From Candidatus Methylomirabilota bacterium (GTDB taxonomy: Bacteria > Methylomirabilota > Methylomirabilia > Rokubacteriales > CSP1-6): a DNA stretch of 64,000 bases. A program made the position numbers and the translations under genes. Under the pieces are notes generated by a model, which had not been told where the DNA came from, did not search any database, and was given only the letters and a program-made list of their open reading frames with translations. Every line of letters begins with the position of its first letter. Position 1 is the first letter of the stretch. Below, piece by piece: positions 7,306-59,877 of this stretch. The DNA lies in the NCBI GenBank assembly GCA_036002485.1, contig DASYTI010000108.1, positions 2,053 to 66,052 of the forward strand, read 5' to 3'.

Positions 7306-7322
7306 CGCCTTGCTTCCGGCTC

Positions 7323-13034: not shown

Positions 13035-13059
13035 CCGGGTCCTCCCGCGAAGACCGGTT

Positions 13060-38564: not shown

Positions 38565-38652
38565 GGTCGGTGCGGCACATTCTATCGAAAAGACGCGCGA
38601 TTGCTTGACAAAGGTATACCCCACCCCTAGGCTTTGACCGGGAGGCCCACCA

Positions 38653-40497
38653 ATGATCGACACCAAGACGGCGGACAGGGAGCTTCAGACGTATATCCGC
38701 CCGCAGACCTTCCCCGTGGCCATTCGGATGCTCAAGCCCGGTGAGCCCATCCCGGAGCGTGCCAAGCGCCCGGCGCGCGACTTCAAGAAGCTCAGCATGT
38801 CCTGTCAGGTCATCGACATGTCGCGTCGATACGGCTGGATGATCGCCCTCACGCGCGAAGACCACATCTGCTCGCTCGGCATCACGGCCATCGGCTTCGA
38901 CAGGCCGCTGCCCATCTACAACGTGGGCACCCTCTGCGAAGGCATGTACACGGAGACCAAGGAGGCGGGCCAGCGCTCGGAGGCCGCCATCGACAAGTTC
39001 TCCCCCGGCGAGTACGAGACCCTCCTCGTCGCCCCCCTCGATCGCGCGACCTTCGAGCCGCACGTGGTCTGTATCTACGCCAACCCCGCCCAGGTCATGC
39101 GACTGACCCAGGCCGCGCTGTGGAAGCGCGGGGGGCGGCTCGCCTCGTCCTTCGAGGGACGCGCGGTGTGCGCCGACATCATCGTGACGACCATGCAGAC
39201 GGGCGAGCCGCAGGTGATCCTGCCGTGCTCCGGCGATCGCATCTTTGGCCAGACGCAAGACCACGAGATGGCCTTCTCCATCCCGTGGGCTCGCATGGAG
39301 GAGATCGTCGAAGGCCTACGCGGCACCCACAACGGCGGCATCCGCTATCCGATCACCCAGTTCATGGAGTACGAGGCCAGGCTGCCTCCGCGCTACATGG
39401 AGGTCAACCGGCTGTGGGACGTCGAGAAGGGCAAGGCGAGCCTGACCAACCGCGATCGCGTGGTGGCTGCCTACAAGCGCTCCTTCGCCGACCGCGTGCC
39501 CGTCTACCCCATCGTGGCGTCCTTCGCGGGCACCCTGGACGGGCTGAGCATCGAGGAGTACTGCACGAGTCCGACCAAGGCCATCACGGCCATGATGAAC
39601 TACTACGAGCGCTATCAGCCCGATGTGGTCCTCGCCTACAACGACCTGGCCAAGGAGGCCGAGGCCTTCGGCTGCAAGGTCAAGTACTCCGACTACGTGG
39701 TGCCCTCGATCGAGGGACACGTGCTCGAGGACAAGGCCAACCTGGCCGCCCTGCGCATGCCGGATCCCTACAAGACGGCGCGCCTCCCCGGCTTCATCGA
39801 GCAGTGCGAGGCCCTCGTCAAGGCCGCCCCGCCCGCCGCCATGGGCGCCGTGGCCGTCGGCCCCTGGACCATCGCCATGCTCCTGCGCAATCCGGAGATG
39901 ATGCTGCTCGACACCTTCGAGGACCCGAAGTTCATCCACGACCTCATGCGGGTGACCACGGACTTCTGCAAGGTGTGGGGGGATGCCATCGCCAAGACCA
40001 AGATCGGGCTCAGCTTCTCGGAGCCCACGGCGTCGATCAGCCTCATCTCACCCGACAACTACCGCGAGTTCATCGCGCCCTACCACAAGGAGCTGGTGGA
40101 GTACTTCAAGGCCAAGAAGGTGGGCCTGACCACCCACATCTGTGGCACGACCTATCCAATCTTCGAGGACATCATCGGGTGCGGCTTCACCACGGTGTCC
40201 TTCGACCTCGACCAGCAGTCGGATCCCAAGCTCCACGTCGACCAGCTCGAGCGCTTCGTGGAGATGGTCAAGGGCCGCGCCGTGGCCATCGGCAATGTGG
40301 ACGCCACGCGCTTCGAGAAGAGCACCAAGGAGGAGATGGAGGCCGACGTCCGTCGCTGTATCGACGCGGCGGCCAAGCATTCGGGGTTCATCCTGTCGAC
40401 GTCGTGCGAGATCCCACCGCGCTCGAGCCCCGAGATCGTGAAGTGGTTCATGGATGCGGCGCACGACTTCGGTCGCTACGAGAGAGTCCTCGGCTAG
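38653..40497 (+). CDS. Fusion protein: N-terminal DUF169 domain plus C-terminal uroporphyrinogen-decarboxylase (URO-D)/MtaA-like methyltransferase-family domain
   Basis: N-terminal ~260 aa are DUF169-like (...CIYANPAQVMRL...). C-terminal ~340 aa are URO-D/MtaA/CmuA-like (VYPIVASFAGTLDGLS..., GLTTHICGTTYPIFEDII). Confidence 0.65.
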   Translation: MIDTKTADRELQTYIRPQTFPVAIRMLKPGEPIPERAKRPARDFKKLSMSCQVIDMSRRYGWMIALTREDHICSLGITAIGFDRPLPIYNVGTLCEGMYTETKEAGQRSEAAIDKFSPGEYETLLVAPLDRATFEPHVVCIYANPAQVMRLTQAALWKRGGRLASSFEGRAVCADIIVTTMQTGEPQVILPCSGDRIFGQTQDHEMAFSIPWARMEEIVEGLRGTHNGGIRYPITQFMEYEARLPPRYMEVNRLWDVEKGKASLTNRDRVVAAYKRSFADRVPVYPIVASFAGTLDGLSIEEYCTSPTKAITAMMNYYERYQPDVVLAYNDLAKEAEAFGCKVKYSDYVVPSIEGHVLEDKANLAALRMPDPYKTARLPGFIEQCEALVKAAPPAAMGAVAVGPWTIAMLLRNPEMMLLDTFEDPKFIHDLMRVTTDFCKVWGDAIAKTKIGLSFSEPTASISLISPDNYREFIAPYHKELVEYFKAKKVGLTTHICGTTYPIFEDIIGCGFTTVSFDLDQQSDPKLHVDQLERFVEMVKGRAVAIGNVDATRFEKSTKEEMEADVRRCIDAAAKHSGFILSTSCEIPPRSSPEIVKWFMDAAHDFGRYERVLG

Positions 40498-44802: not shown

Positions 44803-46644
44803 CTACTGAAGCGCGTCCAAGACTTCGGCCACGACTTCGAAGCGCCCGAAGGAAGGCATGAGATAGGCACCGGCATAGTGGCCCCGAAGGTGGCGAACGA
44901 GCTCCTGCGCGGTCTCGATCCCGACGCGAAGGCCCCGCTCGCCCGCCTCGCGCATGCGTCCACGGACGGCGTCGGGAATGGTGATTCCCGGCACCTCGTT
45001 GTGCAGGAACTCGGCATGACGGGATGAATGCAGCGGCAAGAGGCCCACGACCACCGGAATGGGTGGGCGCGTGCGAGCGAAGAACCGCTCCAGCACCTCC
45101 AGATCGTAGATCGGCTGCGTCTGGCACCAGCGGGCGCCCGCCTCGGCCTTGGCGAGGAAGCGCTCCATCTCCCGGGCAGGATCGGCCGCCGCGGGATCGA
45201 GGGCCGCTCCCACGCAGAACGCCGTGGGCTCGCCGACGGAGTTGCCCGTGGCATCCCGTCCCTCGTTCATCTCCGACAAGATGCGGATGAGCCCGATGGC
45301 GTCGACGTCGAACACCGCAGTGGCGTTGACGTAGTCGCCGCCCCGGGGCGGATCGCCCGTCATGGCCAGGATGTTCCTGATATCGAGGGCGTGAGCGCCG
45401 AGCACGTCGGCCTGGATGCCCATGAGGTTCCGGTCGCGACTCGTGAAGTGCATGTTGATGTCCAGCCCCGTGGCCTCGCGCACGAGAATGGCCGTGGGCA
45501 GCACCGACATGCGCACGCGTCCGAGGGAGCCGTCGTTGATGTCCACGATCTCGACCCCGCGCTCCTTGAGGAGCTTGGCCCCCTGGACGAGCTTCTCGAT
45601 ATTGTGCCCGCGCGGGGGATCGAGCTCGACCGTCACGAGGAACTCCCCCGCCTCGAGCTTGCGCTGCAGCAAGGTCGGGGCGGCCGTGGTGACGAGGGCC
45701 GGCGTCTCGCGTTCGATCCGCGCGCGTCGTGGCGCGGCCGTCCGGTCACTCCGGCTCGGCACGTGGCGATCCACCGCCTCTCGCATGGCGCGGATATGAT
45801 CGGCCGTGGTGCCGCAGCAGCCACCCAGGAGACGGGCGCCCGCTCCGATCATCCGCGCGGCGAACTCGGCCATGTAGGCGGGCGAGGAGACATAGATGAG
45901 TCGCTCGCCGATGCGCGAGGGCAGGCCGGCATTCGGCTGGATGCTCACGGGCAGCCCGCCCGCCTCGGGCAGCATCTGCTCGAGCACCTCGTACAGCGTG
46001 CTCGAGCCGACGGAGCAGTTGGCGCCGAGCCCCTGGATGGGCAGCTCGCGCAGCGTCCTCGTCACCTCGGCGGGTGTGCTGCCGAGGAACGTCACGTGAT
46101 CCTGGGTAAAGGCTACCGACGCGATGACGGGCAGATCAGTGATGGCCCGGATGGCCTCGACGGCAAGTCTCAGCTCCTGGAGGTCGGAGAAGGTCTCGAC
46201 CATGAAGGCGTCCACGCCGCCCTCCAGCAGCCCTTCGGCTTGCTCGGCGAAGGCGGCCCTCGCCTCCTCGCTCGTGATCGATCCCAGCGGGGCCAGGTAC
46301 TTCCCCAGCGGCCCGATGGAGCCGAGGACGAAGACGTCGCGGCCCAGGGTCTCGCGCACGTCCCGCGCCAGCTTGACGCCTCGCAAGTTGATCTCGCGCA
46401 CCTGCGCGGCGAGGCCGTGGACGCCCAGCTTGAAGCGATTGGCGCCGAAGGTATTCGTCTCGATCCAGTCGGCTCCGGCCTGGATGTACTCGGCGTGAAT
46501 GCCCTGGACGATCTTGGGCTCGTTGACGTTCAGCACATCGAAGCAGGCATCCAGCGGCACGCCACGCGCATACAGCATGGTGCCCATGGCGCCATCGCCC
46601 AGCAGTGGATGCTTGGCCAGCCGCTCGAGGAAGGGCGCGCTCAT
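44803..46644 (-). CDS. Bifunctional homocysteine S-methyltransferase-domain / 5,10-methylenetetrahydrofolate reductase (YitJ-like)
   Basis: N-terminal PF02574-type domain with Zn-site GGCCGT. C-terminal MetF domain (LVTVELDPPRG...). ATG at 46644. Confidence 0.8.
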   Translation of the reverse strand: MSAPFLERLAKHPLLGDGAMGTMLYARGVPLDACFDVLNVNEPKIVQGIHAEYIQAGADWIETNTFGANRFKLGVHGLAAQVREINLRGVKLARDVRETLGRDVFVLGSIGPLGKYLAPLGSITSEEARAAFAEQAEGLLEGGVDAFMVETFSDLQELRLAVEAIRAITDLPVIASVAFTQDHVTFLGSTPAEVTRTLRELPIQGLGANCSVGSSTLYEVLEQMLPEAGGLPVSIQPNAGLPSRIGERLIYVSSPAYMAEFAARMIGAGARLLGGCCGTTADHIRAMREAVDRHVPSRSDRTAAPRRARIERETPALVTTAAPTLLQRKLEAGEFLVTVELDPPRGHNIEKLVQGAKLLKERGVEIVDINDGSLGRVRMSVLPTAILVREATGLDINMHFTSRDRNLMGIQADVLGAHALDIRNILAMTGDPPRGGDYVNATAVFDVDAIGLIRILSEMNEGRDATGNSVGEPTAFCVGAALDPAAADPAREMERFLAKAEAGARWCQTQPIYDLEVLERFFARTRPPIPVVVGLLPLHSSRHAEFLHNEVPGITIPDAVRGRMREAGERGLRVGIETAQELVRHLRGHYAGAYLMPSFGRFEVVAEVLDALQ

Positions 46645-46645
46645 C

Positions 46646-47221
46646 TCACTCAGAAATTGATCCCTCTCCCCCCTTGGGGGAGAGGGCAGGGTGCGGGGGT
46701 CGGGCCCGCACACGAAGCGCCCTGAGCACCTCCGCCGCGACCTGGTCGGGGTTGAGGCGCGTCGTGTCCACACTCAGATCAGCCTTGGCGTAGAAGGGTT
46801 GGCGGGACTTGTAGAGCGTCTCGATCTCCTCGCGTGTCTTGCCTTGGAGCATCGGCCGATCGCCGCTTCTGAGCGCTCGCTCGCAGAGTGTCGGGAGATC
46901 GCCAGACAGCCAGACGACCGTGCCCAGGGCCTGGAGAGCTTCCACGCGCCCCTCCTGGCACGGCAACCCGCCGCCCGTGGCAATGACCTCTCCACGCTTG
47001 AGGGCGAGAAGCCGCACCGCCTCGTCCTCGAGGGCGCGGAAGTGCGGCTCGCCCTTCACCGTGAAGATCTCGGGGATGGGGCGCCCCTCCTTGGCGGTGA
47101 TCATGTCGTCGGTCTCGACGAAGCAGCGGCCCAGCCGCTTGGCCAGGAGCCTCCCGACCGAAGACTTGCCCGCTCCCATGAATCCCACGAGGATCACGTT
47201 GTCATCCATGTCACCGGCCAT
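46646..47221 (-). CDS. aroK: Shikimate kinase
   Basis: P-loop ILVGFMGAGKSSVGRLLA. A palindromic hairpin CCCTCTCCCCC-TTGG-GGGGGAGAGGG overlaps the 3' end. Confidence 0.8.
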   Translation of the reverse strand: MAGDMDDNVILVGFMGAGKSSVGRLLAKRLGRCFVETDDMITAKEGRPIPEIFTVKGEPHFRALEDEAVRLLALKRGEVIATGGGLPCQEGRVEALQALGTVVWLSGDLPTLCERALRSGDRPMLQGKTREEIETLYKSRQPFYAKADLSVDTTRLNPDQVAAEVLRALRVRARPPHPALSPKGGEGSISE

Positions 47222-47247
47222 CGTATCACCGGAAGTCGGTGATATCC

Positions 47248-47988
47248 CTATCGGTGCACGGTGGCGACGGCAGGGGCGCGGCGGTAGGCGCAGTCGCGCA
47301 TCCAGCAGCGCCGGCACTGGGTGAAGTAGTGGTCCACGCGGGCCTCGGGTCCGATGCCCACGAGGATCGAGATGCTCTTGCCGGGCGTCATGACACACGA
47401 GTCATTGAGCGTCACCCCGATGGGCTCGCCCGGGCAGAGGTGGAAGAGCGCGGCCTGCTCGGCCGTGTCCCAGCCCGCATAGCCAGGGCTGATTCGATTG
47501 GTGACCTTCAGGCCGGCGGGAAGCGCCGCCTGGCACAGGAGGTCATTTATGTATTCGGCCAGGCTCTCCACCGCCGCCGAGCCGACGCTGTCGAGCATCA
47601 CGGCGAGCGGGAGCTCGCGCTCCTCCCAGAGCGACCGCACGCGATCTTCGATGGCGGCGCCCACCGTGCAGATCCCCGCCCCCACCGCCTCCAGCACGCC
47701 CCACAGCCTGCTGATCTCGGGGATGTGCAGATCTTCACCGCCCGCCTGGATCAGATCGAGCCCTTGCCCGGTCACCCCCGCCGCGCGGTAGACGAAGCGC
47801 GGATCCATGAGCGATTCGCCGAGGGCCAGTGCCTCGTCGAAGAGCGCAAGCACGGTTGCATCCGGGATGTCGCGGCCCTTCTTGTAGCCCTGGAAGCGCA
47901 GGACGTCTTGGGGATCTACGCGGAGGGACAAGCAGCGGCGGTCGAGGGTGACGGGAACGGGCGAGCGGACGTCGAGCGCCGCGCTCAC
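47248..47988 (-). CDS. Stand-alone methionine-synthase reactivation (AdoMet-binding activation) domain protein
   Basis: Met_synt_B12-like with SAM motif RISPGYAGWD. The GTG start overlaps the TGA of the upstream HMT gene (GTGA). Confidence 0.7.
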   Translation of the reverse strand: MSAALDVRSPVPVTLDRRCLSLRVDPQDVLRFQGYKKGRDIPDATVLALFDEALALGESLMDPRFVYRAAGVTGQGLDLIQAGGEDLHIPEISRLWGVLEAVGAGICTVGAAIEDRVRSLWEERELPLAVMLDSVGSAAVESLAEYINDLLCQAALPAGLKVTNRISPGYAGWDTAEQAALFHLCPGEPIGVTLNDSCVMTPGKSISILVGIGPEARVDHYFTQCRRCWMRDCAYRRAPAVATVHR

Positions 47989-48911
47989 GGCGGCGAGCGG
48001 CGGGAGCGCGCGACCTCGGCGATCAAGCGGATATGCTCCGGCCCCGAGCCACAGCAAGCGCCCACGATATTGCAGCCGGCGTCGAGCAGTGCCGGGTAGT
48101 CCTTGGCCATGGCCTCCGGCCCGAGCTCGTAGGTCGTCGTATCGCCCTTGGTGATGGGGAGCCCCGCGTTGGGATAGGCGATCAGCGGGGCCTCGGTGAC
48201 CGCGCGCATCTCACGGATGATGACGATGGCGCGATCCGGGCCCCGACCGCAGTTCATGCCCACGATGTCCGCCCCCGCGTCGAGCAGAGTCCGTGCCACC
48301 TCGGCCGGACTCTCGCCCCACATGGTGCGGTCACGGTCGTGGATCTCTTCGTACTGGAAGAACATGGTCGCCATCACGGGCAGATCGGCGGCCGCCTTGC
48401 AGGCCTTGATGGCGCCGATGGCCTCCTGGGGAAACATCATGGTCTCCACCGCGAAGATGTCCACTCCGCCCTCGGCCAGGGCCTCGGCCTGTTCCTTGAA
48501 GGTGGCGAAGTACTCGTCGTCCGTCGCGACGTTGTCGCCCACGCCGTAGTCCACGGGCAGGCAGCTCGTGGGGCCGATGGAGCCCGCGACAAAGCCGCCC
48601 GACGGACACACCGAGCGGGCGAGCCTGGCACCCTTGTCGTTGAGCTCCCGGGTGCGATCGCCGATCTTATACTCGTTGAGCTTCAGACGCGTGCCGCCGA
48701 AGGTATTGGTCTCCACGAAGTCCGAGCCGGCCTTGAAATAGCCCTCGTGAATCCCGCGCACGATATCGGCGTGAGTGTCGTTCCAGAGCTCCGGGCAGCC
48801 GCCGTTGCTGAGCCCGGCCGCGAAGAGGGCCGTGCCATAGCCGCCGTCGAAGACGAGGCGCTCCCCCGCCTTGGCGCGCTCCACGATCTCCCAGCCGCGC
48901 GGCCGGGCCAT
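47985..48911 (-). CDS. Stand-alone homocysteine-binding-type Zn-dependent thiol methyltransferase (MetH module 1-like, PF02574)
   Basis: 308 aa with a GACCGSGP zinc site and MetH Hcy-domain-like sequence. ATGA overlap with the corrinoid protein gene. Confidence 0.75.
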   Translation of the reverse strand: MARPRGWEIVERAKAGERLVFDGGYGTALFAAGLSNGGCPELWNDTHADIVRGIHEGYFKAGSDFVETNTFGGTRLKLNEYKIGDRTRELNDKGARLARSVCPSGGFVAGSIGPTSCLPVDYGVGDNVATDDEYFATFKEQAEALAEGGVDIFAVETMMFPQEAIGAIKACKAAADLPVMATMFFQYEEIHDRDRTMWGESPAEVARTLLDAGADIVGMNCGRGPDRAIVIIREMRAVTEAPLIAYPNAGLPITKGDTTTYELGPEAMAKDYPALLDAGCNIVGACCGSGPEHIRLIAEVARSRRSPP

Positions 48912-49573
48912 CAGGTGGCCGCGGCCACGCCGAGAAGCTCCTTGGCGCGCGTCACCGCGATGGTCGAATCCCTGGCGTACCCGTCGGCGCCGATCTCGTC
49001 GGCATAGGCCTGGCTCACGGGGGCGCCGCCGATCATCACCTTGACGCGCTCGCGCAGCCCGGCCTTGGCGAGGGCGTCGATGGTGCGCTTCATGGCGGGC
49101 ATGGTCGTGGTCATGAGGGCCGAGATCCCGACGATCTGGGCCCCGTGCTCCTCCACCGCGGCCACGAACTTCTCCGGCGCCACGTCGCGCCCGAGGTTGT
49201 GGACCTTGAACCCCGCGCCCTCGAGCATCATGGCCACCAGGTTCTTGCCGATATCGTGGAGGTCGCCTTGCGCGGTGCCGATCACGATGATCCCCAGCGA
49301 CTGGCCGTCGCCCCCCGCCTTGGTGATGAGGGGCTTGAGGAGATCGAGCCCCGCGTACATCGCGCGCGCGGAGAGGAGGACCTGCGGCACGTAGTACTCG
49401 TTGCGCCGGAACTTCTCTCCGACCACGTCCATGCCCGGGATCAGTCCTCGGAAGATCAGATCCTTGGGATCCATGGCGAGGGCGAGCCCTTCCTGGGTCT
49501 TGCGGGCCACCGTGTCCTTGTCGCCCAGGATCAGCGCCCTCGACATGATCGGGTAGTCGAAGTCATCGCTCAT
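48911..49573 (-). CDS. Cobalamin-binding corrinoid protein (B12-binding cap plus Rossmann domain)
   Basis: DxHxxG motif (GDLHDIGKN) and MtaC/MetH B12-domain-like sequence. Start taken at MSDDFDYPIMSR. Confidence 0.8.
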   Translation of the reverse strand: MSDDFDYPIMSRALILGDKDTVARKTQEGLALAMDPKDLIFRGLIPGMDVVGEKFRRNEYYVPQVLLSARAMYAGLDLLKPLITKAGGDGQSLGIIVIGTAQGDLHDIGKNLVAMMLEGAGFKVHNLGRDVAPEKFVAAVEEHGAQIVGISALMTTTMPAMKRTIDALAKAGLRERVKVMIGGAPVSQAYADEIGADGYARDSTIAVTRAKELLGVAAAT

Positions 49574-50973
49574 GCGTCGTTCGTGGCTCCTCCGGGCTTG
49601 ACCGTGGAATAGCCTGCCTTGACCCACTCTCGCATGCCGCCGGCCACATTGTAGCAGTCGGTCAATCCCGCCCGCCGGAGGGCGCTGATGACCGAGCTGG
49701 ATCGGAGCCCGCCGGCGCAGAGCACGGCCTTGGGGCGATCCGCGGGCAGCTCACCCAAACGCGAGAGGGCCTGGCTCATCGGGAAATTGACGGCTCCCGC
49801 GATGTGCCCGTCGTCCCATTCGGTGGCTTCCCGCACGTCGACCACGACCAGATCGGGCCGCTCGTCCCGCATGGTGGCAAGATCGTGCACGGTGATCTGC
49901 GGCACGCTCGCATGAGGCAGCCCTTCGCTCTTCCAATCCGTCATGCCACGCTGGAGATAGCCGAGGATGTCGTCCATGCCCGCGCGTCCGAGCGCCTCGA
50001 CGCTGCGCTGGAGGTCTGACGGGCCCGCGGCCACCAGGACGAAGCGGCTATCGACTGGGGCCATCATGGCCACCCGCGGCGCGAAGGGACTGCTCTCGAT
50101 CCAGACATTGATGGCACCCGGAATGTGGCCGTCGCCGAACTCGGCCGGGCTGCGCACGTCGAGGATGACGCCCCCCTTGGCCATGGCCTCGCGCGCCTGC
50201 GCGGCAGAGAGCGGCTGAAACTCGCCCGTGGAGGGAAGGGCCTGGGCCCGGTTGCGCGCGATGATGCGGTCGAAGCTCGGCGGCTTCGGCGGCAGCCCCG
50301 TCATGAGCTCGCGCACGAAGGCCTCCACCGTTGCCGGCTGCAGGGCGGGGTTGAAGCGGCGCTCGAACCCGATGGTGGAGCCGGGCTTGGAGGACATCGC
50401 TCGCCCGCACGAAGACCCTCCGCCATGGGCGGGATAGACTTCCACGCTGTCGGGCAGCGTGAGCACGCGGCGGGTCAGGCTCTCGAAGAGATCGGCGGCT
50501 GCCCGCTCGCCGCCGAAGTCCGGTCGCCCGACGTCGCCCACGAAGAGCGTGTCACCGGTCAGGATGAACCACGGCTCTTCTCCACGCGACAAATCGGTCA
50601 CGAGCAGGCAGACGCTGTCCGGGGTATGTCCCGGGGTGTGGATGACCTGCACCCGCACCGTACCGAACCGGATCTCGTCCCCGTGCTCGATCGGCGTATG
50701 GGGAAACGCGGCCTCGGCCGCGGGATGAATGTGCACCCGGGCGCCGACCTTTGCGGCCAGGCTCTGGTTGCCCGAGATATGGTCGGCGTGGACGTGGGTG
50801 TCCACGATGTGGGTGAGCTCGAGCCCCTTGCGCCGGGCCCACGCCGCGTAGTCGTCGACCCGGTCCCGGGCGGGGTCGACCACGAGGGCCTGCCCCGCCT
50901 GGCTGCAGGCGATCAGGTAGGAGATGCAGCCGGCATCCTCGTTGAGGATCTGCTGAAAGATCATCGGTCGCAT
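49570..50973 (-). CDS. Persulfide dioxygenase (ETHE1-like MBL fold) fused to two rhodanese domains
   Basis: HxHxDH motif (HVHADH) and MBL fold, followed by two rhodanese modules with active-site Cys (CAGGLRS). ATGA overlap with the corrinoid protein gene. Start uncertain (50973 or 50964). Confidence 0.75.
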   Translation of the reverse strand: MRPMIFQQILNEDAGCISYLIACSQAGQALVVDPARDRVDDYAAWARRKGLELTHIVDTHVHADHISGNQSLAAKVGARVHIHPAAEAAFPHTPIEHGDEIRFGTVRVQVIHTPGHTPDSVCLLVTDLSRGEEPWFILTGDTLFVGDVGRPDFGGERAAADLFESLTRRVLTLPDSVEVYPAHGGGSSCGRAMSSKPGSTIGFERRFNPALQPATVEAFVRELMTGLPPKPPSFDRIIARNRAQALPSTGEFQPLSAAQAREAMAKGGVILDVRSPAEFGDGHIPGAINVWIESSPFAPRVAMMAPVDSRFVLVAAGPSDLQRSVEALGRAGMDDILGYLQRGMTDWKSEGLPHASVPQITVHDLATMRDERPDLVVVDVREATEWDDGHIAGAVNFPMSQALSRLGELPADRPKAVLCAGGLRSSSVISALRRAGLTDCYNVAGGMREWVKAGYSTVKPGGATNDA

Positions 50974-51120
50974 CTTCCCACACGGACTCACCACGACGCA
51001 AGGTGGCCTTGGATAAGGCTTCTGGAAGGACGATTGTGGGTAACTTGACCCAGAATCGGCTGGTAGACTAGACTCTGCGGAGTTTAAACTCGGCCCTACG
51101 GGAGGCTATCGGCAGTCGCG

Positions 51121-51885
51121 ATGAAGATCAAAGTCCTTGGCTCGTTCGGAAGCGAGGGGCAGGGACAGCGACCCTCAGCATTTCTCGTAGACGACAAGGT
51201 CCTGGTGGACGCCGGCACCGTCGGGGGCGCCCTCACGCCCGCCGAGCAGATCGAGGTCGAGTACGCGCTGGTCAGCCACGCCCATTTCGATCACATCGCC
51301 GGCCTGGCCTTTCTTACCGACACCTTGGCCATGATCGCGCCCGAGCGTCGGGTGACCGCATGCAGCATCGGGCCCGTGCTCGACAGCCTTCGAACCCATG
51401 TCTTCAATGACGTGGTCTGGCCAAATTTCGCCAATATCCCCGATCCGAAGAATCCCGTGCTGGCCTTCCGCACCCTCGCCGAAGAAGGCGAGGCGCGAGT
51501 GGGCGAGCTCTGGGTGACCCCGGTGCCCGTGGACCATACCATCCCCACCACGGGCTTCGTGGTCCACGACGGAGAGACGGGCTTCGTGTTCAGCGGGGAC
51601 ACGGGGCCGACCAAGCAGATCTGGAAGCTCGCGCGCGAGATGCGAGGGATCAAGGCGGTCATCGTGGAGACGTCCTTCCCCAACCGAATGGACGCGCTGG
51701 CGAAGACGTCCGGACACCTGACCCCGGAGATGCTCAAGCGCGAGCTCGACAAGGCGCCTCCGGACATTCCCGTCTGGATCTACCACGTCAAGCCGCAGCT
51801 GTACCAGGAAACCGTCGAAGAGCTCGCCAAGATCGACTCCACCCGCATCCACATCCTCGAGCAGAGCAAGACCTACACGCTGTAG
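51121..51885 (+). CDS. Class II 3',5'-cyclic-nucleotide phosphodiesterase-like MBL-fold hydrolase
   Basis: HAHFDH motif and PF02112-like sequence. Confidence 0.65.
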   Translation: MKIKVLGSFGSEGQGQRPSAFLVDDKVLVDAGTVGGALTPAEQIEVEYALVSHAHFDHIAGLAFLTDTLAMIAPERRVTACSIGPVLDSLRTHVFNDVVWPNFANIPDPKNPVLAFRTLAEEGEARVGELWVTPVPVDHTIPTTGFVVHDGETGFVFSGDTGPTKQIWKLAREMRGIKAVIVETSFPNRMDALAKTSGHLTPEMLKRELDKAPPDIPVWIYHVKPQLYQETVEELAKIDSTRIHILEQSKTYTL

Positions 51886-51922
51886 TCCTTACACTTCCGC
51901 CGTCTCTGGTCCCTGCCCCCGC

Positions 51923-52774
51923 TCATCCACGGGAGGCGGGCTCGAAGAGAAACTCCGTCAGGTAGGTGTTGACGGTGGCCGCGTGCTCGATCTGCGGGAA
52001 GTGCCCGCACCGGTCGAGCCACTTGGCGGTGGCGAGATCGAGTCCCTGGCTCACCTGCCGTGCGTGGGCCAGCGGGATGACGGCGTCCTGGAGCCCGTGG
52101 ACGAGCAGGATGGGCCGCCGGAACCTGAGCAGTCCCTCCCGGTAGAGCTGGGTGTGCTCCGTGAAGTCCTCCCGGACCGAGCGCAGGAGCGAGAGGTAGG
52201 CTGCCCGGCCATCGAGAGAGGCGCGGACCGCGAACTCGTGCTCCACGAAGAAGCGAATCTCCTCGGGATCGGGCGAGACGAAGCAGCGCTCGAGCGCCGT
52301 CGCGCAGATCCCGCGCGTGATGAGCCTCGAGAGAAGCTCGCCGATCCCCGGCAGGGACAGCGTCCGGTACACCCACGAGGGCCGGAGGGGAAACCCCGGC
52401 ACGGCGGAGGCGAGGAAGGCCAGCCGCTCGACGCGGGCCGGGTGAGCCACGGTGAAGCGGGCGGCCACGGCGCCGCCCATGGAGTGGCCGACCAGGCGCA
52501 CCTGCTCGAGGCCCAGCTTGCGGAGGAATGCCTCGAGGACCTCGGCCAGGAAGGTCAGGGTGTACGCGCGGCGGGGCTTGCCGGATTTCCCGAAGCCCGG
52601 CAGGTCCAGGGCGATCACCCGGCCGTGGCGTCCCAACTCGGGGATGGTATGGCGCCAGGACTCGGCAAAGCCGCCCAGGCCGTGGAGAAGCACGGTAGCC
52701 GGCCCCTGCCCCTCCGAGAGGTAGTGCAGAAGAAGCCCGTCGAGCTCGCCGCCCGTGAGCCGGAGGTGCGCCAC
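51923..52774 (-). CDS. Alpha/beta hydrolase
   Basis: GHSMGG nucleophile elbow and HGLGG oxyanion region. Confidence 0.75.
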   Translation of the reverse strand: MAHLRLTGGELDGLLLHYLSEGQGPATVLLHGLGGFAESWRHTIPELGRHGRVIALDLPGFGKSGKPRRAYTLTFLAEVLEAFLRKLGLEQVRLVGHSMGGAVAARFTVAHPARVERLAFLASAVPGFPLRPSWVYRTLSLPGIGELLSRLITRGICATALERCFVSPDPEEIRFFVEHEFAVRASLDGRAAYLSLLRSVREDFTEHTQLYREGLLRFRRPILLVHGLQDAVIPLAHARQVSQGLDLATAKWLDRCGHFPQIEHAATVNTYLTEFLFEPASRG

Positions 52775-52776
52775 GG

Positions 52777-53772
52777 TCAGGAATCGAGGAGTCGCGTCAG
52801 CGCGTCGCGGAACGGAAAGACACTGAAGATACCGCCGGTGTGGATGAAGCAGACACGCTGGCCGAGCGCCTTGGGGTCGCGCTCGAGCGTGTGGAGAAGC
52901 CCGCCGAAGGCCTTGGCCGTGTAGACGGGATCGAGCATCAGGCCTTCCTCACGCGCCAGACGGATCACGAGGGAGAGCTCCGCGTCGTCCACCCCGGCCC
53001 GTCCCATTCCCTGGTAGCCGTCCAGAAGATGGATGCTCTTCGGCACCTCGATGGCGAAGCCGAAGCGACGGATGGCCTTCCCGATGGTGTCGCTGACATA
53101 GCTGCGCACGCGCTCGGCCGGGAACGCGATGGGGATGCCCACGATCTCCGAGGGCAGCCCGGCGAGCTGCTTGCCCATGAGGAGCCCGGCCTGGCTGCCC
53201 CCGCTGAAGCACGTCAGGGCCACCGTGTCGAAGCGCGGCGCCCCGTGGGTGATCTGCTCCGCGAGCTCGACGGCGCATTCGAGGTAGCCGAGCGCCCCCA
53301 GCTCGTTGGAGCCGCTCTCGGGAATCACATAGGGCTTGCCCCCGACGCGCCGGACGTCTTCGGAAATCGCTTCGAGGGTGCCCGCGGCCTGGCGGAACTG
53401 GTCGTCGGTGAGATACCGCACCTCGGCGCCCAGCATCCGGTCCAGGAGGAGGTTTCCGTCATAGGTATCGGGCCGGCCGCCCTTGACCGCGAGGACGGCA
53501 CGGAGACCAAGGCGCGCGGCCACCGCCGAGACAGCGCGGCAGCAGTTGGACTGGAGCGTCCCGATGGTGATGAGGGTGTCGGCGCCCTGGGCGAGGGCAT
53601 CGCCGACGAGGAACTCGAGCTTGCGGACCTTGTTGCCGGATTCGAGGAGGCCGGTCAGATCGTCACGCTTGACCCAGAGCTCGACCCCCAGCCGCCGCGA
53701 CAGCCGCTCGAGCTTCATGACCGGCGTGGGCGCCAGGGCCAGCTCGATTCGCGCGGGCGTGATCGTCACGCT
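52777..53772 (-). CDS. PLP-dependent D-cysteine desulfhydrase / ACC deaminase family protein
   Basis: PALP-family sequence (WVKRDDLTG...SGNKVRKLEFL). Likely GTG start at 53772; the upstream part of the raw ORF is junk. Confidence 0.7.
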   Translation of the reverse strand, partial: SVTITPARIELALAPTPVMKLERLSRRLGVELWVKRDDLTGLLESGNKVRKLEFLVGDALAQGADTLITIGTLQSNCCRAVSAVAARLGLRAVLAVKGGRPDTYDGNLLLDRMLGAEVRYLTDDQFRQAAGTLEAISEDVRRVGGKPYVIPESGSNELGALGYLECAVELAEQITHGAPRFDTVALTCFSGGSQAGLLMGKQLAGLPSEIVGIPIAFPAERVRSYVSDTIGKAIRRFGFAIEVPKSIHLLDGYQGMGRAGVDDAELSLVIRLAREEGLMLDPVYTAKAFGGLLHTLERDPKALGQRVCFIHTGGIFSVFPFRDALTRLLDS

Positions 53773-53858
53773 TCCAATCCTAACACCGGCGCCTATGAAT
53801 GCCGCATTCCCGGCAGCGGCACGAGGCGGCCACGGAGCTGCAGGTCGAGGACGGCCCT

Positions 53859-54701
53859 CTAGCCCACCTTCTTCGCCACCGCCGCGTACTGATCCAGCAA
53901 CGGCAGCACGGTGCCGGCCAGCGCGGACGGGACGAAGAAGACCACGCGTGCCACGCCCATGTCGCGCCACCCGGCGAGCTTGCCCTCGTCGGGCCGCACC
54001 CCGAAGAGCGACACCGTCACCGTGGCCGGGTCGCGCCCGGCCTTTTCCGCGCGCTGGCGCAGATCAGCCATGGCTTCATCCAGAGGATCGCGCCCGATGA
54101 TGGGCATCCAGTGCCCGTCGAACTCCGCGGCGCGCTGACGCGCGTGCGGGCCGCTGCCTCCCATGAGGATGGGCGGGTACGGCTTCTGGACGGGCTTGGG
54201 GTATGACCAGAGCTTGTCGAAATTGACGTACTTCCCGTGGTACTGCGCCTCCTCCTGCGTCCAGATCGCCTTCATGGCCGCGATGCGCTCGCGCAGGATC
54301 TTCCAGCGATCGCTGAACGGCGTCCCGTGGTCCTCCATCTCCTCGGCGTTCCAGCCCCCGCCGATGCCGAAGAGGACGCGCCCCCCGGAGATGAAGTCCA
54401 GGCTCGCGACCTCCTTGGCGAGAATGATGGGGTCGCGCTCGATCACCAGGCAGATGCCGGTGCCGAGCATGAGGGTCCTGGTCACCGCGGCCGCTGCGCC
54501 CAGCGCGACGAAGGGGTCGAGCGTGTGCCAGTAGTCGCGCGGGAGATCGGCCCCGCCGGGCCATGGGCTCTTGCGGATGACGGGGATATGCGTGTGCTCG
54601 GGGAGCCACAGCGACTCGAAGCCGCGCGCCTCAAGCTCGCGGGCCAGAGCATCCGTGGGGATCGCATAGTCGGTCGGGAACATCGCGACGCCGTATTTCA
54701 T
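53859..54701 (-). CDS. LLM-class F420-dependent / flavin-dependent oxidoreductase (luciferase-like)
   Basis: Luciferase-like monooxygenase TIM-barrel sequence (MKYGVAMFPTDYAI...). Confidence 0.75.
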   Translation of the reverse strand: MKYGVAMFPTDYAIPTDALARELEARGFESLWLPEHTHIPVIRKSPWPGGADLPRDYWHTLDPFVALGAAAAVTRTLMLGTGICLVIERDPIILAKEVASLDFISGGRVLFGIGGGWNAEEMEDHGTPFSDRWKILRERIAAMKAIWTQEEAQYHGKYVNFDKLWSYPKPVQKPYPPILMGGSGPHARQRAAEFDGHWMPIIGRDPLDEAMADLRQRAEKAGRDPATVTVSLFGVRPDEGKLAGWRDMGVARVVFFVPSALAGTVLPLLDQYAAVAKKVG

Positions 54702-54705
54702 GGGG

Positions 54706-55779
54706 TCATCCTCCGAGATCGAGCGGGGTGTAGTACGGGCGGCCGCCGAGGGCCTTGACCTCTTTCTGGAAACTGGTGCCGTAGAAGCGCTCGGCGTCGG
54801 TCAGGGCCCAGGCCTGGCGCTTGAAGCACCACGACTCGGGCTGCAGCTCCTGCGCCCGCTTGAAGAAGGGCACGGCCGCCTCGGGCCGTCCGCTTTCGTG
54901 CAGGTGCTCGGCCAGGCGGAAGGTCGCCGCGGCGAGCGCGTGCGCCGCCGACGGCACGAAGAGCCGCTGGCGGCGCTCCTTCGGGGGCAGGACAAAGCCG
55001 CTCCGCGGGCCGCGGTCGACCCAGTCGCGGATGGCCGCCAGGTAGCGCGTCATGTCGAACTTGGTGTACTCGATCCAGCGGTTGTCGGCGAAGGCAACTT
55101 CGTTCGGGCGCACGATAGCCCCGTCCTCATCGATCCACACGGCGGTCGGGACATTGACCATGTTGTAGGCTCGCGCGACGTCGTAGTGGGCGTCGATGAG
55201 CGAGGGGTGAGTCGGGCTGGCCGCGCGGATCCACTCGCCGGCCGCGGCCGTTCCCGCGCTGTCGAGGGCCACCGTGATCACGGTCAGGCCTTTCGGCTCC
55301 AGCTCGGCGTGCAGGGCCTGCCACCCGGGCAGGTCGAAGCGGCAGCCTCACCATGAGGCCCAGGCAAGGAGAAAAACCTTCCGACCTCGAAAGGTCGAGA
55401 GGCGGTGGGGATTCCCGTCGATGTCCGGGAGGGTGAAGTCGGGCGCCTCGAGGGACAGGAGCCGCTCGGCGGCGTCCTCGGCCGCCTCGCCGATGGACCA
55501 GACGGCGTGCTCGGGAGTCGCGGCGACCGGCTGGCCCATATGACGCGCGAGAGCCGTGAGGTTGACCCTGGGGGCGGGCCCGCCCAGGTCAAGGAGCCCC
55601 TGGCCAGCCGGGCCTTGAGGCACCGGCACGCAGAGCGAGCCGCGGCACAGCCCCTCGGGCTTGATCTCCCAGCCTCCGCAGCGCACGAGGGCCGGCGGGT
55701 CGAGCCAGAGGTTCTCGCCCTCGACCCGGGCCGTCTCCACCACTATCGACTCGCCGGGCAACAGCACTGTCGCTTTCAT
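54706..55779 (-). CDS. Putative selenoprotein: TlpA/ResA-like thioredoxin-fold oxidoreductase. An in-frame TGA (55348-55350) sits at the redox-active Cys position. It has N- and C-terminal extensions of unknown function.
   Basis: Reading through the TGA gives ...APDFTLPDIDGNPHRLSTFRGRKVFLLAWASW-U-GCRFDLPGWQALHAELEPKGLTVITVALDS... This aligns to the TlpA motif FWASWCxPCR...VxVD. A hairpin CCUGCC-CGGGU-GGCAGG lies 15 nt 3' of the UGA. A GAGGAG RBS precedes the ATG at 55779. Confidence 0.6.
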
Positions 55780-55883
55780 CGCGGATCTCCTCCTGCTCGC
55801 CCCGAGCTCCGGGCGGGGATAGAATACTGATAACAACGGCGGCGTCCAGCGGTCACACGTGGCGCCCTGGATGGAGGGAACCC

Positions 55884-56282
55884 ATGCACACTCAGCTGAT
55901 CCGGTTGATCGCGATCCTGGCGGCCGTGCTCCTGGCCGGGCTCCCTGCGGCCATCCTGGCCGAGGATACGGGCAAGGCCCCCGAGAGCACCGCTTCCGAC
56001 CAGAAGGCCACGGACAAGAAGTCCACGGATACGAGCAAGGTGGGCGAGGCCACGAAGCGGGTCGAGTCCGGCGCCAAGCAGGCCGGGGAGGGCATCAAGG
56101 AAACCGCCAAGGGCATCGGCAACACGGTGGTGGAAGGCGCCAAGGTCGCCGGCGAGAAAGTCAAGGACGCGGCCAAGGAAGTCGAGCCGCAGGCCAAAGG
56201 CGCCTGGCAGAAGACCAAGGACGGCGCGGCCGATGCCGCGGAGAGCGTGAAGAATTTCTTCAAGCGGCTCTTCAGCGGCTAG
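55884..56282 (+). CDS. Secreted Lys/Ala-rich repeat protein (hypothetical)
   Basis: Signal peptide, then KxxAxxGxK-like amphipathic repeats. Its TAG stop lies within the CTAG terminus of repeat copy C. Confidence 0.55.
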   Translation: MHTQLIRLIAILAAVLLAGLPAAILAEDTGKAPESTASDQKATDKKSTDTSKVGEATKRVESGAKQAGEGIKETAKGIGNTVVEGAKVAGEKVKDAAKEVEPQAKGAWQKTKDGAADAAESVKNFFKRLFSG

Positions 56283-56420: not shown

Positions 56421-58979
56421 CTAGCGCGTCTTGATGAGGCGGCCCAGATAGGCTGCCAGCGCTTCCGCCTCCCGCTCCTGGAAAGCGACGGCGACGCGAA
56501 GCTGCTCGAAGTACTGCTCGAGGGTCTTGCCCCCCAGGGTGATCTTGTGCTCGACGAAGAAGGCGTGGACATCGCGCTCCCACTCCGGGCTCACCAGGGC
56601 GGGGATGCCCTCGTACATCCGGCGATACGCGCTGCCGGGGTAGAGCCGTTGCATGGTCTGCCAGTGCTGCTTCACGAATTCCCAGGCCAGTCCTCGGCTG
56701 TGCACGCTCTGGAGCAGGCTCCGGATGAGAAATGGCGCATCCTGACTCCGCACCTCGCCGTTGATGGTCATCTCGAGCGTCTGCCTCAGCAGCTCGGGCG
56801 GCCGGAAGCCCGCGAGGGCGTACAGGTAGCGCTGCTCCTCCTGGGGTGTGCGCGCCCGCTTGTAGCGGTCCCGGAAGTCGGCATATTCGCTCTCGCCCCC
56901 TGAGGCGGCCACGATGGCGATGACGGCGGGGAGCACATTGGCGTCCACCGAGGTCTCGTCCACTTGGTAGCGCGCATAGACTTCCCGGGCGCGAGCCTGG
57001 ACGGTCTCGTCATTGCCGAGCGTCCCCAGCACGCGGAGCAGGTCGCCACGGAGCTGACGATCGAGCTCGCTCTCGCCCTCCTGAGGCTCCCAGCCGAGCA
57101 GCGAAGCCATCTCGTCCACGCGGTGGCGCACCAGCGCCTCGAGTCCGGGACGCTGGTCGTCGTCGGCAATCACGCGGTTGACCCAGGCCAGTGACCCCGT
57201 GAGCACGGCCCACACATTGCGGTCGGTCTCCGTGGTGAACCGTCCCGTCAGATCGAGAAAGTCGGAGGCCGTCATCATTCCGGACTGCGCGAGGGCGAAG
57301 CAGTCACTGAGCAGGTTGAACCGCTCGATGGGCGCGATCTTCGCCAGGGCCCCCGCCAGCTTCTTGAGAAGGGCGGGCGCATAGCGGACCCGGTAGAAGC
57401 CGTGGCCGCCGGAGTTCAGGACCACCCAGTCGGGCTTGGCGGGCAGCGGCACCGCGGCGTCCGCACCGTCGAGGAGAAGCCGGCGCTCGACGTAACCGCG
57501 CTTGACGGAGGCGCGGAACACCACGGGGATGCGCCACTGCTCGGCGGGATCCGGCTGGCCGCCGAGGTACAGGAAGCGCTGCTGAGTCAGCTTGAGTCCT
57601 GCCCCATCGATCTCGACGCTGACAAGCGGATAGCCGGGGCGGAAGATCCACCCGTCCATGACTTCGGGAATGGGCTGGTGGGCGGCGTCTCCGAGGGCTT
57701 TCCACAGATCCGTCGTCTCGGCATTCGAGTACTTGTGGCGCTCGAGGTAGAGCCGCACCCCCGCGCGGAAGCTTTCCGGCCCCAGATGCTGCTCGAGCAT
57801 GCGCAGAACCGACGCGCCCTTCTCGTAGGTCAGGAGATCGAACATCGCCTCGCAGTCGCGGGGCGCCATCACCTCGAACTCGATGGGGCGGGTGGCCTTG
57901 AGCCCGTCGAGGTTCATGGCGGAGGCTCGCGAGACGCCGAAGGTGATCCAGCGCTTCCACTCGGGCTTCCACGCGTCCACGGCCAGGAGCTCCATGAAGG
58001 TGGCGAAGGCTTCGTTGAGCCAGATGCCATTCCACCAGGACATGGTGACGAGGTCGCCGAACCACATGTGCGCGACCTCGTGCGCCACCACATCGGCGAT
58101 GCGCTCGAGCTCGGCATGCGAGGCCGCCGCCTCGTCGACGAGGAGGGCCGTCTCCCTGAAGGTGACCGCGCCCAGGTTCTCCATGGCGCCCGCCGCGAAA
58201 TCGGGGATGGCGAGGAGATCGAGCTTGTCGCTCGGATACGGCACGCCGTAGTAGCGCTCGAAGAAGTCGAGCGAGAAGGCGCCGATGTCGAGGGCGAAGC
58301 GCCCGAGATGCTTCTTGCCGGGCACGCCCCAGACGCGCAGCGGGGTCGGTCCCACCATGACGGGCTCGGTCGCCTCGAGCTCCCCCACCACGAAGGCCAC
58401 CAGGTAGGTGGACATCTTGATCGTATCCGCGAAGGTCACGGCCCGGCGCCCATCACCGAGCGCCTCTTCCCTGAGCACGGAGGTATTGGACACCGCGGCC
58501 AGGGGCTGAGGGACCACCAGGGTCACGCCGAAGACCGCCTTGAAGGCCGGCTCGTCCCAGCACGGGAAGCCGCGCCGCGCATCAGTGGCCTCGAACTGGG
58601 TGGCCGCGATGGTGTGCGCGGTGCCGGCGGCGTCCTTGTACGTGCTGCGATAGAAGCCGTGGAGCTTGTCGTTGAGAATGCCCGTGAACCGGAGGGCGAG
58701 CCGCCACTGGCCCGGCGTGATCGTCATGGGAAAGACGAGGCGCGCGCGCTCGGCCGCCTCGTCGAGCGAGGTCGAGCCGTGGATGGGCTCGCGCCCGTCC
58801 TGAGAGATGGCCGCGCTCTCGATGACGAGCTCGGCGGCGTTGAGCAGGATCTCGATCACGGGCTCGCGCACGTCGACGATGATGCTCACGGCACCGGCGA
58901 AGGTGGCGGCTTCCAGGTTGGGCTCGAGGCGAAGATCGTAGCGTTGCGGGACCACGGTCGTAGGCAAGCGATAGTCCAT
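56421..58979 (-). CDS. pepN: Aminopeptidase N (M1 family)
   Basis: HEVAHMWFG zinc motif plus NEAFATF and GAMEN motifs. Start taken at MDYRLPTTVVPQRYDL. Confidence 0.85.
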   Translation of the reverse strand: MDYRLPTTVVPQRYDLRLEPNLEAATFAGAVSIIVDVREPVIEILLNAAELVIESAAISQDGREPIHGSTSLDEAAERARLVFPMTITPGQWRLALRFTGILNDKLHGFYRSTYKDAAGTAHTIAATQFEATDARRGFPCWDEPAFKAVFGVTLVVPQPLAAVSNTSVLREEALGDGRRAVTFADTIKMSTYLVAFVVGELEATEPVMVGPTPLRVWGVPGKKHLGRFALDIGAFSLDFFERYYGVPYPSDKLDLLAIPDFAAGAMENLGAVTFRETALLVDEAAASHAELERIADVVAHEVAHMWFGDLVTMSWWNGIWLNEAFATFMELLAVDAWKPEWKRWITFGVSRASAMNLDGLKATRPIEFEVMAPRDCEAMFDLLTYEKGASVLRMLEQHLGPESFRAGVRLYLERHKYSNAETTDLWKALGDAAHQPIPEVMDGWIFRPGYPLVSVEIDGAGLKLTQQRFLYLGGQPDPAEQWRIPVVFRASVKRGYVERRLLLDGADAAVPLPAKPDWVVLNSGGHGFYRVRYAPALLKKLAGALAKIAPIERFNLLSDCFALAQSGMMTASDFLDLTGRFTTETDRNVWAVLTGSLAWVNRVIADDDQRPGLEALVRHRVDEMASLLGWEPQEGESELDRQLRGDLLRVLGTLGNDETVQARAREVYARYQVDETSVDANVLPAVIAIVAASGGESEYADFRDRYKRARTPQEEQRYLYALAGFRPPELLRQTLEMTINGEVRSQDAPFLIRSLLQSVHSRGLAWEFVKQHWQTMQRLYPGSAYRRMYEGIPALVSPEWERDVHAFFVEHKITLGGKTLEQYFEQLRVAVAFQEREAEALAAYLGRLIKTR

Positions 58980-59073
58980 GGCCCCAGAGGATACCATCGT
59001 CGCGGCGCCCTGACACTTGACATCACCGACCCGTGGCGTGAGACTCGGCGCGTCCACGCATCCGGGAGATCCC

Positions 59074-59877
59074 ATGGAGAGTCTCAAGGACAAGACCGCG
59101 GTCATCACGGGCGGCGCCAGCGGCATCGGCCGCGCCCTCTGCCTCGCCTTCGCCGGCGAGGGCGCGCGCATCGTGATCGCCGACATCGATGACGCGGGTA
59201 TGGCGGAGACGGCGGGCAGCGTTGCCAAAGCCGGGAGCAAGGCGATCACCGTCAAGACGGACGTGACCAAGCTCGCATCCGTTCAATCTCTGGCCGATCG
59301 CGCCTTCAGCGAGTTCGGCGGGGTGCATCTGCTCTGCAACAACGCGGGCGTGGCCATCCACGGCTCGCTCGAGTCGGCCAGCCACCGCGACTGGGAGTGG
59401 GTGCTGGGCGTCAATCTGTGGGGCGTCATCCACGGCATCGAGGCCTTCGTGCCGCGGATGATCGCGCAGAAGGAGCCCGGCCACATCGTCAACACGGCCT
59501 CCATGGCCGGGCTCATCGCCTCCCAGGGGCTCGGGGTGTACAACACGAGCAAGTACGCGGTGGTCGGATTGTCCGAGACACTCCAGAAGGATCTGCGCCC
59601 CCACAACATCGGCGTCTCAGTGCTCTGCCCCATGGGCGTGTCCACCAACATCCGCACGAGCGAGCGCAATCGACCGGCCGATCTGCAGAATCCGAGCGGC
59701 CCCGAGACGAACGACTGGTTCCAGCTCATCGGCCGCTATCTCGCGCCGGAGGAGGTGGCCGGGCGCGTGCTGCGCGCGGTCAAGGCCAACCGCCTCTACG
59801 TCATCACCCACGAGGAAGCCCGCGAGCCGCTGCGCCGCCGCTTCGAGCGCATGGACCGGGCCTTTGAGGAGTCTTGA
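59074..59877 (+). CDS. SDR-family oxidoreductase
   Basis: TGGASGIG cofactor motif, catalytic YxxxK (YNTSK) and NNAG block. Confidence 0.8.
   Translation: MESLKDKTAVITGGASGIGRALCLAFAGEGARIVIADIDDAGMAETAGSVAKAGSKAITVKTDVTKLASVQSLADRAFSEFGGVHLLCNNAGVAIHGSLESASHRDWEWVLGVNLWGVIHGIEAFVPRMIAQKEPGHIVNTASMAGLIASQGLGVYNTSKYAVVGLSETLQKDLRPHNIGVSVLCPMGVSTNIRTSERNRPADLQNPSGPETNDWFQLIGRYLAPEEVAGRVLRAVKANRLYVITHEEAREPLRRRFERMDRAFEES

Follow-up and report, generated by a model that had tools for sequence, protein, structure and literature searches.

A predicted selenoprotein gene of the ResA-like WAxxUGC family in a Candidatus Methylomirabilota contig

The window analysed here is a stretch of 64,000 nucleotides from a Candidatus Methylomirabilota bacterium (contig DASYTI010000108.1 of assembly GCA_036002485.1, positions 2,053 to 66,052 of the forward strand). 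At 54706-55779 its minus strand carries a complete gene of 357 codons, the 144th of which is an in-frame TGA. With high confidence the gene is intact and encodes a selenoprotein of a catalogued family, 'ResA-like WAxxUGC' (UGC-containing Prx-like/TlpA-like); selenocysteine (Sec) would be inserted at UGA144. The genome that carries it is GC-rich and resembles Methylomirabilota (Rokubacteria) most. The gene does not found a new family, being an unannotated orthologue of a curated selenoprotein family: with Cys typed for Sec its product scores 345.5 bits against the NCBIfam model NF041054 ('WAxxUGC_long', an equivalog model of 354 positions), the cutoff of which is 300 bits (E = 3.9e-103).

The UGA codon at position 144 and its conservation

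The gene runs from the ATG at 55779-55777 to the terminal stop TGA at 54708-54706, an extent that is supported by its translation, by the NF041054 score and by full-length tblastn matches in 80 genome loci. A Shine-Dalgarno-like AGGAGG (55789-55794, minus strand) can be read directly in the sequence 9 nt 5' of this ATG, which is therefore taken as the start, so that the protein begins with MKATVLLPGESIVV, has no hydrophobic segment there and lacks a signal peptide, as the original prediction had stated. Codon 144 (55348-55350) is the sole internal stop and lies in the context KVFLLAWASW-[TGA]-GCRFDLPGWQALH. The two raw open reading frames (ORFs) that had been joined in that prediction (55348-55836 and 54706-55281) indeed share one frame, with the TGA as the only stop between them. 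Third codon positions have a G+C fraction (GC3) of 0.80 before the TGA and of 0.95 after it. When the window was scanned for other genes with an in-frame TGA and coding signal on both sides, only the codon-144 gene turned up. An alternative genetic code was considered and rejected: TGA terminates about 27 of 41 other genes of the window as well as the selenoprotein gene itself.

Homologues were searched with the read-through protein in which Cys was typed at position 144. Two classes of matches were obtained, namely full-length proteins of 340-410 aa carrying W-A-S-W-C-G-C-R and many closer matches (up to 82% identity) of 196-215 aa, which start just past the TGA position (MDLPGWQ..., MITVALDS...). 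Judged from where they begin, the shorter proteins are the signature of gene callers halting at the TGA. In species-representative genomes, a scan yielded 80 loci in which tblastn matched the protein over its full length (residues 1-357, 44-76% identity). TGA occupies exactly codon 144 in 78 of them, and also in the second, tandem copies found in two loci (L031 and L067); the consensus around it is [VIL][FL][LV]xxWASW-TGA-GC[RSH]xDLP[GV]W. The loci belong to Methylomirabilota/Rokubacteria, to many Acidobacteriota (Blastocatellia, Pyrinomonadaceae, Angelobacter, Acidoferrum), to metagenome-assembled genomes (MAGs) labelled 'delta proteobacterium', and to Gemmataceae, Isosphaera, Verrucomicrobiia and Binataceae, so that Planctomycetota and Verrucomicrobiota are among the phyla with TGA orthologues. 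Soil metagenomes contain them too: a metagenome scan seeded with the Cys forms returned 74 TGA genes and one TGC gene. In total, 154 further genes have TGA at codon 144, with the protein conserved on either side of it, and since these genes come from many species the coincidence of the codon is far beyond chance. The original prediction had asked for orthologues to be inspected for a sense codon combined with a frameshift at this place; no frameshifts were found.

The TGA is embedded in the active-site motif W-A-S-W-U-G-C (residues 140-146, codons at 55342-55362, defined by translation and orthologue alignment), in which W, S, W, G and C are invariant among 152 unique Sec-form sequences. At the aligned codon TGC (Cys) was verified at the DNA level in six homologues (L155, L161/L162 (P0002), L165 (P0013), L166, L168 and L169, the last from Baekduia soli), where it encodes the first Cys of C-G-C. 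The placement of the TGA at a first-Cys position, proposed originally from the window sequence, is thereby borne out. Two of the features by which bacterial selenoproteins are commonly recognized are present here, namely a Sec/Cys pair and a UGA conserved among orthologues with coding conservation on both sides.

Some of the orthologues deserve separate mention. In P0007 (L163, around 3001, and L164, of acidobacterial type) the TGA is replaced by TGG (Trp), giving WASW-W-GCRF, with the downstream hairpin intact (UUGCC-AGGCU-GGCAA); the identical sequence was found in two independent assemblies. This variant is either a recent loss of function or a tolerated substitution. Tandem paralogues, each with its own TGA and hairpin, were found in two Candidatus Angelobacter MAGs (L031 at 3421 and 4619, L067 at 3427 and 4721), and one of the two L067 copies has a signal peptide while the other has none. 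One short locus (L001, DATEUE010000093.1, a 2.1-kb contig labelled Vicinamibacteria) shares 76-85% identity with the genes of the window and, in this region, hardly differs from a Rokubacteria locus (L002); it was probably mis-binned into an acidobacterial MAG.

In public annotation the orthologous genes are mostly split into a 139-aa and a 174-215-aa protein named 'hypothetical' or 'TPR repeat'. One 354-aa JGI 'peroxiredoxin' (P0021, L167 832-1896) is a TGA gene that was called straight through the codon, the Sec position being filled with a residue; because some JGI calls treat the TGA in this way, database counts of 'Cys-form' homologues are inflated. The exact sequence of the window protein has no database entry, and among database proteins a C-terminal fragment with 82% identity comes closest. 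One 357-aa selenoprotein should replace the two 'hypothetical' fragments.

The downstream hairpin and alternative readings of the UGA

A hairpin of the selenocysteine insertion sequence (SECIS) type begins 15 nt past the UGA (55317-55333, minus strand). It consists of the 5' arm CCUGCC (55333-55328), the loop CGGGU (55327-55323) and the 3' arm GGCAGG (55322-55317), exactly as described in the original prediction, and has a free energy of -10.4 kcal/mol as an isolated hairpin. The criteria quoted for bacterial SECIS elements in PMC13188914 are an apical loop of 3-9 nt, a stem of 4-16 bp, a minimum free energy (MFE) of -7.5 kcal/mol or lower, a G in the first two loop positions (N-G-[G/U]-N-N) and 16-37 nt from the UGA to the loop. 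The window hairpin agrees with all of them, having a 5-nt loop, a 6-bp stem and a spacing of 20 nt in addition to the energy given above. The loop pattern N-G-(G/U)-N-U is present in 155 of 155 genes, and RNAalifold applied to 147 unique sequences returned exactly this hairpin, the 54 nt next to the UGA containing no further conserved pairing.

The hairpin is written in the codons Asp(third base)-Leu-Pro-Gly-Trp-Gln-Ala(first base), or Asp(3)-Leu-Pro-Gly/Val-Trp-Gln-X(1) across the family, and its synonymous positions separate RNA constraint from protein constraint. The third base of the stem Leu codon is G in all 152 unique sequences, compared with 48% CUG/UUG among the Leu codons elsewhere in the same genes; at a near-invariant control Leu ten codons downstream it is C in 59, G in 80, T in 7 and A in 6. 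In the loop, the Pro and Gly/Val codons end in any of the four bases. Base 1 of the Leu codon covaries with base 3 of the Gln codon: 109 genes combine CUG with CAG and 42 combine UUG with CAA, while CUG with CAA and UUG with CAG occur once each. The two bases form a Watson-Crick pair in 151 of 153 genes, where the codon usage of the individual genes would predict 95.5. On a neighbour-joining tree, Fitch parsimony gives at least 13 changes on each side and therefore many independent compensatory switches. The closing pair, between the third base of Asp and the first base of the codon after Gln, is C-G or U-A in 134 of 149 genes. Stem synonymous sites that are frozen or covary, next to loop and flanking sites that drift, are in this alignment a pattern beyond what conservation of the peptide alone accounts for, and the SECIS-like character ascribed to the hairpin beforehand is confirmed to this extent.

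Several observations weigh against the assignment. When the 48 nt from the UGA of the window gene are folded singly, they are no better than shuffled sequences (z = 0.35) and the MFE pairing differs from the conserved hairpin; Rfam gave no SECIS or other RNA family at the site, either in the window at gathering thresholds or in 55200-55450 at E up to 10. Since neither the lone sequence nor Rfam lends support, the support for the hairpin is comparative throughout. The hairpin is also kept in all six Cys-form genes examined, a sample too small to tie the RNA constraint to the Sec forms, and because its codons encode the conserved L-P-(G/V)-W-Q and the Cys forms keep it, its conservation is partly protein-driven. 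Neither selA, selB, selD nor tRNA-Sec is present in the 64-kb window or the fetched loci, which is uninformative at that window size. ARAGORN found no tRNA of any kind in the window and no tRNA-Sec in the window or in any locus; Pfam applied to about 50 window ORFs gave no SelA, SelB or SelD and instead cobalamin salvage and transport proteins, methionine-synthase-like modules, regulators and transporters; tblastn with an approximate sequence of E. coli SelD gave no match. Lastly, the literature searched contains no biochemical or functional study of any member of the family and no report of selenium demonstrated by 75Se labelling or mass spectrometry.

An in-frame stop met in a single sequence usually means a pseudogene or an error of sequencing or assembly, here from a Cys codon (TGC/TGT), and the TGG point variant mentioned above demonstrates that the codon can mutate. 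Such an origin is in effect refuted and its probability practically nil, as the identical TGA recurs in 154 genes from independent assemblies and several phyla with conserved protein on both sides, the frame is intact and GC3 has the values given above on the two sides of the codon; a systematic error shared by different sequencing projects is implausible. Nearly as improbable is a genuine stop at this codon, with N-terminal (143 aa) and C-terminal (about 190-215 aa) proteins made separately, the latter from an internal start. Public gene calls mostly divide the gene in this manner, but the division would cut the thioredoxin fold right after its first β-strand and strip the nucleophile from the active-site motif. 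The first in-frame start past the TGA varies among orthologues (MDLPGWQ, MPGWQ, MITVALDS, LPGWQ), which is a pattern of gene-caller artefacts, and the Cys-form homologues are single proteins of 340-410 aa.

Read-through of the UGA with another amino acid is a slightly stronger rival, although it is still highly improbable. The residue could be Trp, inserted by near-cognate decoding, or Cys, delivered by SelB on a non-canonical tRNA(Cys) whose anticodon is UCA. Vargas-Rodriguez and colleagues reportedly described, in 2018, how such a tRNA(Cys) and SelB turn UGA codons for Sec into codons for Cys, and the natural TGG and TGC variants show that Trp or Cys can occur at the site. Against this stand the curation of the family as a Sec family, the fit of the hairpin to a SelB-type SECIS model, the reports of wide Sec use in the phyla concerned and the absence, in what was seen, of anything pointing to a special tRNA. 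The last of the alternatives leaves Sec in place and concerns the RNA: the hairpin at 55333-55317 might be a by-product of the L-P-G-W-Q codons, with a real SECIS that is different or larger. The presence of the hairpin in the Cys-form genes, the different MFE fold of the window sequence and the shortness of a 6-bp stem for a SECIS speak for this possibility, which is nevertheless unlikely given that RNAalifold reveals no other conserved pairing near the UGA and that the freezing and covariation of the stem sites, unlike the drift of the loop and flanking codons, cannot be explained by peptide conservation. The insertion of Sec at UGA144 under the direction of this hairpin is thus preferred. 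For one Methylomirabilota MAG, 63 selenoprotein genes have been predicted (PMC13188914), and Sec-containing [NiFe] hydrogenases have been described from Methylomirabilota and Acidobacteriota (PMC13582414). The presence of the gene would imply that its source organism decodes UGA as Sec, which fits the very large selenoproteomes reported for Methylomirabilota.

Domains, proposed chemistry and gene neighbourhood

The full-length product would consist of three domains. The N-terminal β-rich domain (approximately residues 1-105, 55465-55779) contains the invariant Gly43, Cys45 and Cys50 (KPEGxCxxxxCxP); with about 105-110 aa, the N-terminal extension is shorter than the approximately 125 aa first proposed. 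It is followed by the TlpA/ResA-like thioredoxin-fold domain (residues 111-226, 55102-55449), defined by Pfam matches to AhpC-TSA (6e-18) and Redoxin (2e-14), which extend from residue 111 to 223/226 straight over codon 144. The C-terminal domain (residues 227-357, 54709-55101), the size of which agrees with the approximately 130 aa of the original prediction, is all-helical and TPR-like: residues 280-315 give sub-threshold Pfam matches to TPR_12/TPR_1, helices span H234-334 in the high-confidence model of the homologue P0013, and W317 and R321 are conserved. Both the N- and the C-terminal domains are conserved in 60 homologues. A signal peptide is absent from the window protein and its Methylomirabilota relatives and present in about 78 of 133 orthologues, mainly acidobacterial ones; the 'mature' N-termini of the orthologues with and without it align.

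The active site is one residue short of CxxC, since in the alignment a one-residue gap appears against the WCxxC of the structures 3kcm, 2yp6 and 4hqz; the U-G-C spacing, with one residue between U and C, that had been read from the window sequence is thus substantiated against ResA/TlpA-type structures. By the standard bacterial mechanism a ribosome at UGA144 would receive Sec-tRNA(Sec) as its ternary complex with SelB and GTP, recruited by the hairpin 15 nt downstream, the loop of which displays the G(G/U) that characterizes SECIS elements of bacteria; after insertion of Sec the translation would run on to the true stop at 54708-54706. Sec144 would stand where the CxxC of ResA/TlpA has its attacking N-terminal Cys, a site that in the P0013 model lies just before the first helix of the fold. 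Because of this position and of the invariance of Cys146, a selenol/thiol redox chemistry of the pair is likely on sequence grounds, and the pair would cycle via a Sec144-Cys146 selenenylsulfide closed over a single Gly, making a U-x-C rather than a U-x-x-C centre. The protein may accordingly be regarded as a putative thiol/disulfide-type oxidoreductase, in which the flanking domains are candidate modules for binding a partner or substrate.

Inside the coding sequence, 25 nt upstream of the Sec codon, a terminator-like hairpin with a T-run was noticed (55375-55398, minus strand, GACCTTTCGAGGTCGGAAGGTT-TTTCTCC). The scan gave three such sites in 4 kb, where 1.5 are expected, and this one is probably due to chance.

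The gene for an F420-dependent LLM-class oxidoreductase (TIGR03619 family, 53859-54701, minus strand) starts 4 nt past the selenoprotein stop and is probably co-transcribed with the selenoprotein gene; the next gene on the same strand is of the PALP/D-cysteine-desulfhydrase family, and both neighbours had been correctly named in the original prediction. The closest relatives, which are mostly MAGs of Methylomirabilota/Rokubacteria (L001-L007, L154 and L158), share the adjacency of the LLM gene, and the context differs elsewhere. Upstream lies a gene for an M1-family aminopeptidase (Pfam Peptidase_M1, 56421-59270, minus strand), which is found 5' of the orthologue in L001-L007 as well, and likewise in L009-L012, loci of 'delta proteobacterium' MAGs. 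Between it and the selenoprotein gene there is a small divergent gene (55884-56282, plus strand), the 132-aa product of which has a signal-peptide-like N-terminus and a low-complexity, apolipoprotein-like repeat region; this gene is conserved in place in several Methylomirabilota loci (L003-L006 and L154).

The genes downstream (49570-54701 on the minus and 51121-51885 on the plus strand) form a set reminiscent of sulfur metabolism, comprising the F420-type LLM oxidoreductase, the PALP enzyme, an α/β hydrolase, an MBL-fold protein and a fusion of an MBL fold with a double rhodanese, which resembles persulfide dioxygenases. The PALP enzyme (D-cysteine desulfhydrase / cysteate sulfo-lyase family) scores 289.2 bits on TIGR01275, the cutoff of which is 289.4. 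Elsewhere in the window two full-length cobalamin riboswitches were found on the minus strand (7133-7309, 99 bits, and 13059-13252, 95 bits). One precedes the gene of a TonB-dependent receptor (5172-7172), after which CbiZ, TonB, CobD and CobQ come on the same strand; the other precedes CobU and CobT (11405-13148), and jointly they mark a B12 salvage/uptake region. At 44803-49750 (minus strand) methionine-synthase-like functions are spread over separate genes: a fusion of homocysteine S-methyltransferase with MTHFR (44803-46773), a B12-dependent Met-synthase activation domain standing alone (47248-48210) and a stand-alone B12-binding protein (48911-49750), with a shikimate kinase gene among them. 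An unusual fusion of DUF169 (residues 16-226) with a uroporphyrinogen-decarboxylase (URO-D/MtaA-like) domain (residues 270-610) is encoded at 38638-40497 on the plus strand.

Relation to known families

Three aspects, all modest and partly controlled, possibly go beyond the catalogue entries: the embedding of the SECIS in the codons of an invariant peptide and its retention in Cys forms, the heavy predominance of TGA forms among the sampled genome and soil-metagenome genes, and the split of the family into forms with and without a signal peptide. There is also a tentative picture, as a whole rather doubtful, in which a SECIS written into an invariant peptide leaves the gene 'pre-adapted' to switch between Cys and Sec by a single base (natural TGC and TGG variants with intact hairpin do occur), the Sec form would be the norm in soil lineages (Acidobacteriota, Methylomirabilota) and the protein thereby among the most widespread soil selenoproteins, and the U-x-C centre together with the Cys-pair domain at the N-terminus would carry out a chemistry other than that of CxxC, for which a strained, more oxidizing selenenylsulfide or the binding of a metal or metalloid are candidates.

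The family to which the gene belongs is defined by NF041054 through the motif W-A-x-x-U-G-C, with U encoded by TGA, and through a 'long' architecture. The window gene has W140-A-S-W-[TGA144]-G-C146, and its 357 aa match in two stretches along the 354-position model; motif and length class (about 355 aa) are shared and no difference was detected. The model provides a name and not a function, and the string WAxxUGC is absent from the literature searched. A 'Prx-like (UGC-containing)' family has been present in published selenoprotein lists since 2008, with 46 Sec and 855 Cys sequences in the Global Ocean Sampling data (PMC2398784). It agrees with the window protein in its Pfam domain, in the U-G-C Sec motif and in having Sec/Cys pairs. 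Cys forms dominate in the ocean data, whereas here 154 of 155 motif-matching genes from the best-matching genome and soil-metagenome loci have TGA.

From TlpA, ResA, CcmG (DsbE) and StoA the window protein differs in its active site, which is C-x-x-C in those proteins and U-G-C, with Sec in place of Cys, in the present one, and in its additional N-terminal (about 105 aa) and C-terminal (about 130 aa) domains. TlpA, ResA and DsbE are extracytoplasmic, whereas the window protein has neither a signal peptide nor a membrane anchor, although more than half of the orthologues inspected do have a signal peptide. Its scores remain far below all the respective cutoffs (ResA 65 against 170, TlpA 45 against 230, StoA 45 against 210 and DsbE 19 against 123 bits). 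A peroxiredoxin of the AhpC/BCP/PrxQ type was rejected as an identity, since the F-L-L-A-W-A-S-W before Sec144 does not contain the P-x-x-x-T/S-x-x-C motif: the positions seven and three residues ahead of the nucleophile lack the Pro and the Thr/Ser, respectively. The PrxQ/BCP models give 17 bits against cutoffs of 140-260, and the Pfam AhpC-TSA match is a fold match at the clan level. The Prx-like UxxC/UxxU and SelL-related selenoproteins resemble the window protein in their thioredoxin/peroxiredoxin-like fold and in the Sec at the N-terminal redox position, and they differ from its U-x-C in the spacing of the pair (U-x-x-C/U) and in domain architecture; the match to NF040769 (SelL_rel_redox) is weak (16 bits against a cutoff of 120), so that by score the protein is not a member. 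Compared with these systems, the gene represents not a new kind of system, but a family widespread in soil bacteria with a rare U-x-C redox centre, which makes it a reasonable target for biochemistry.

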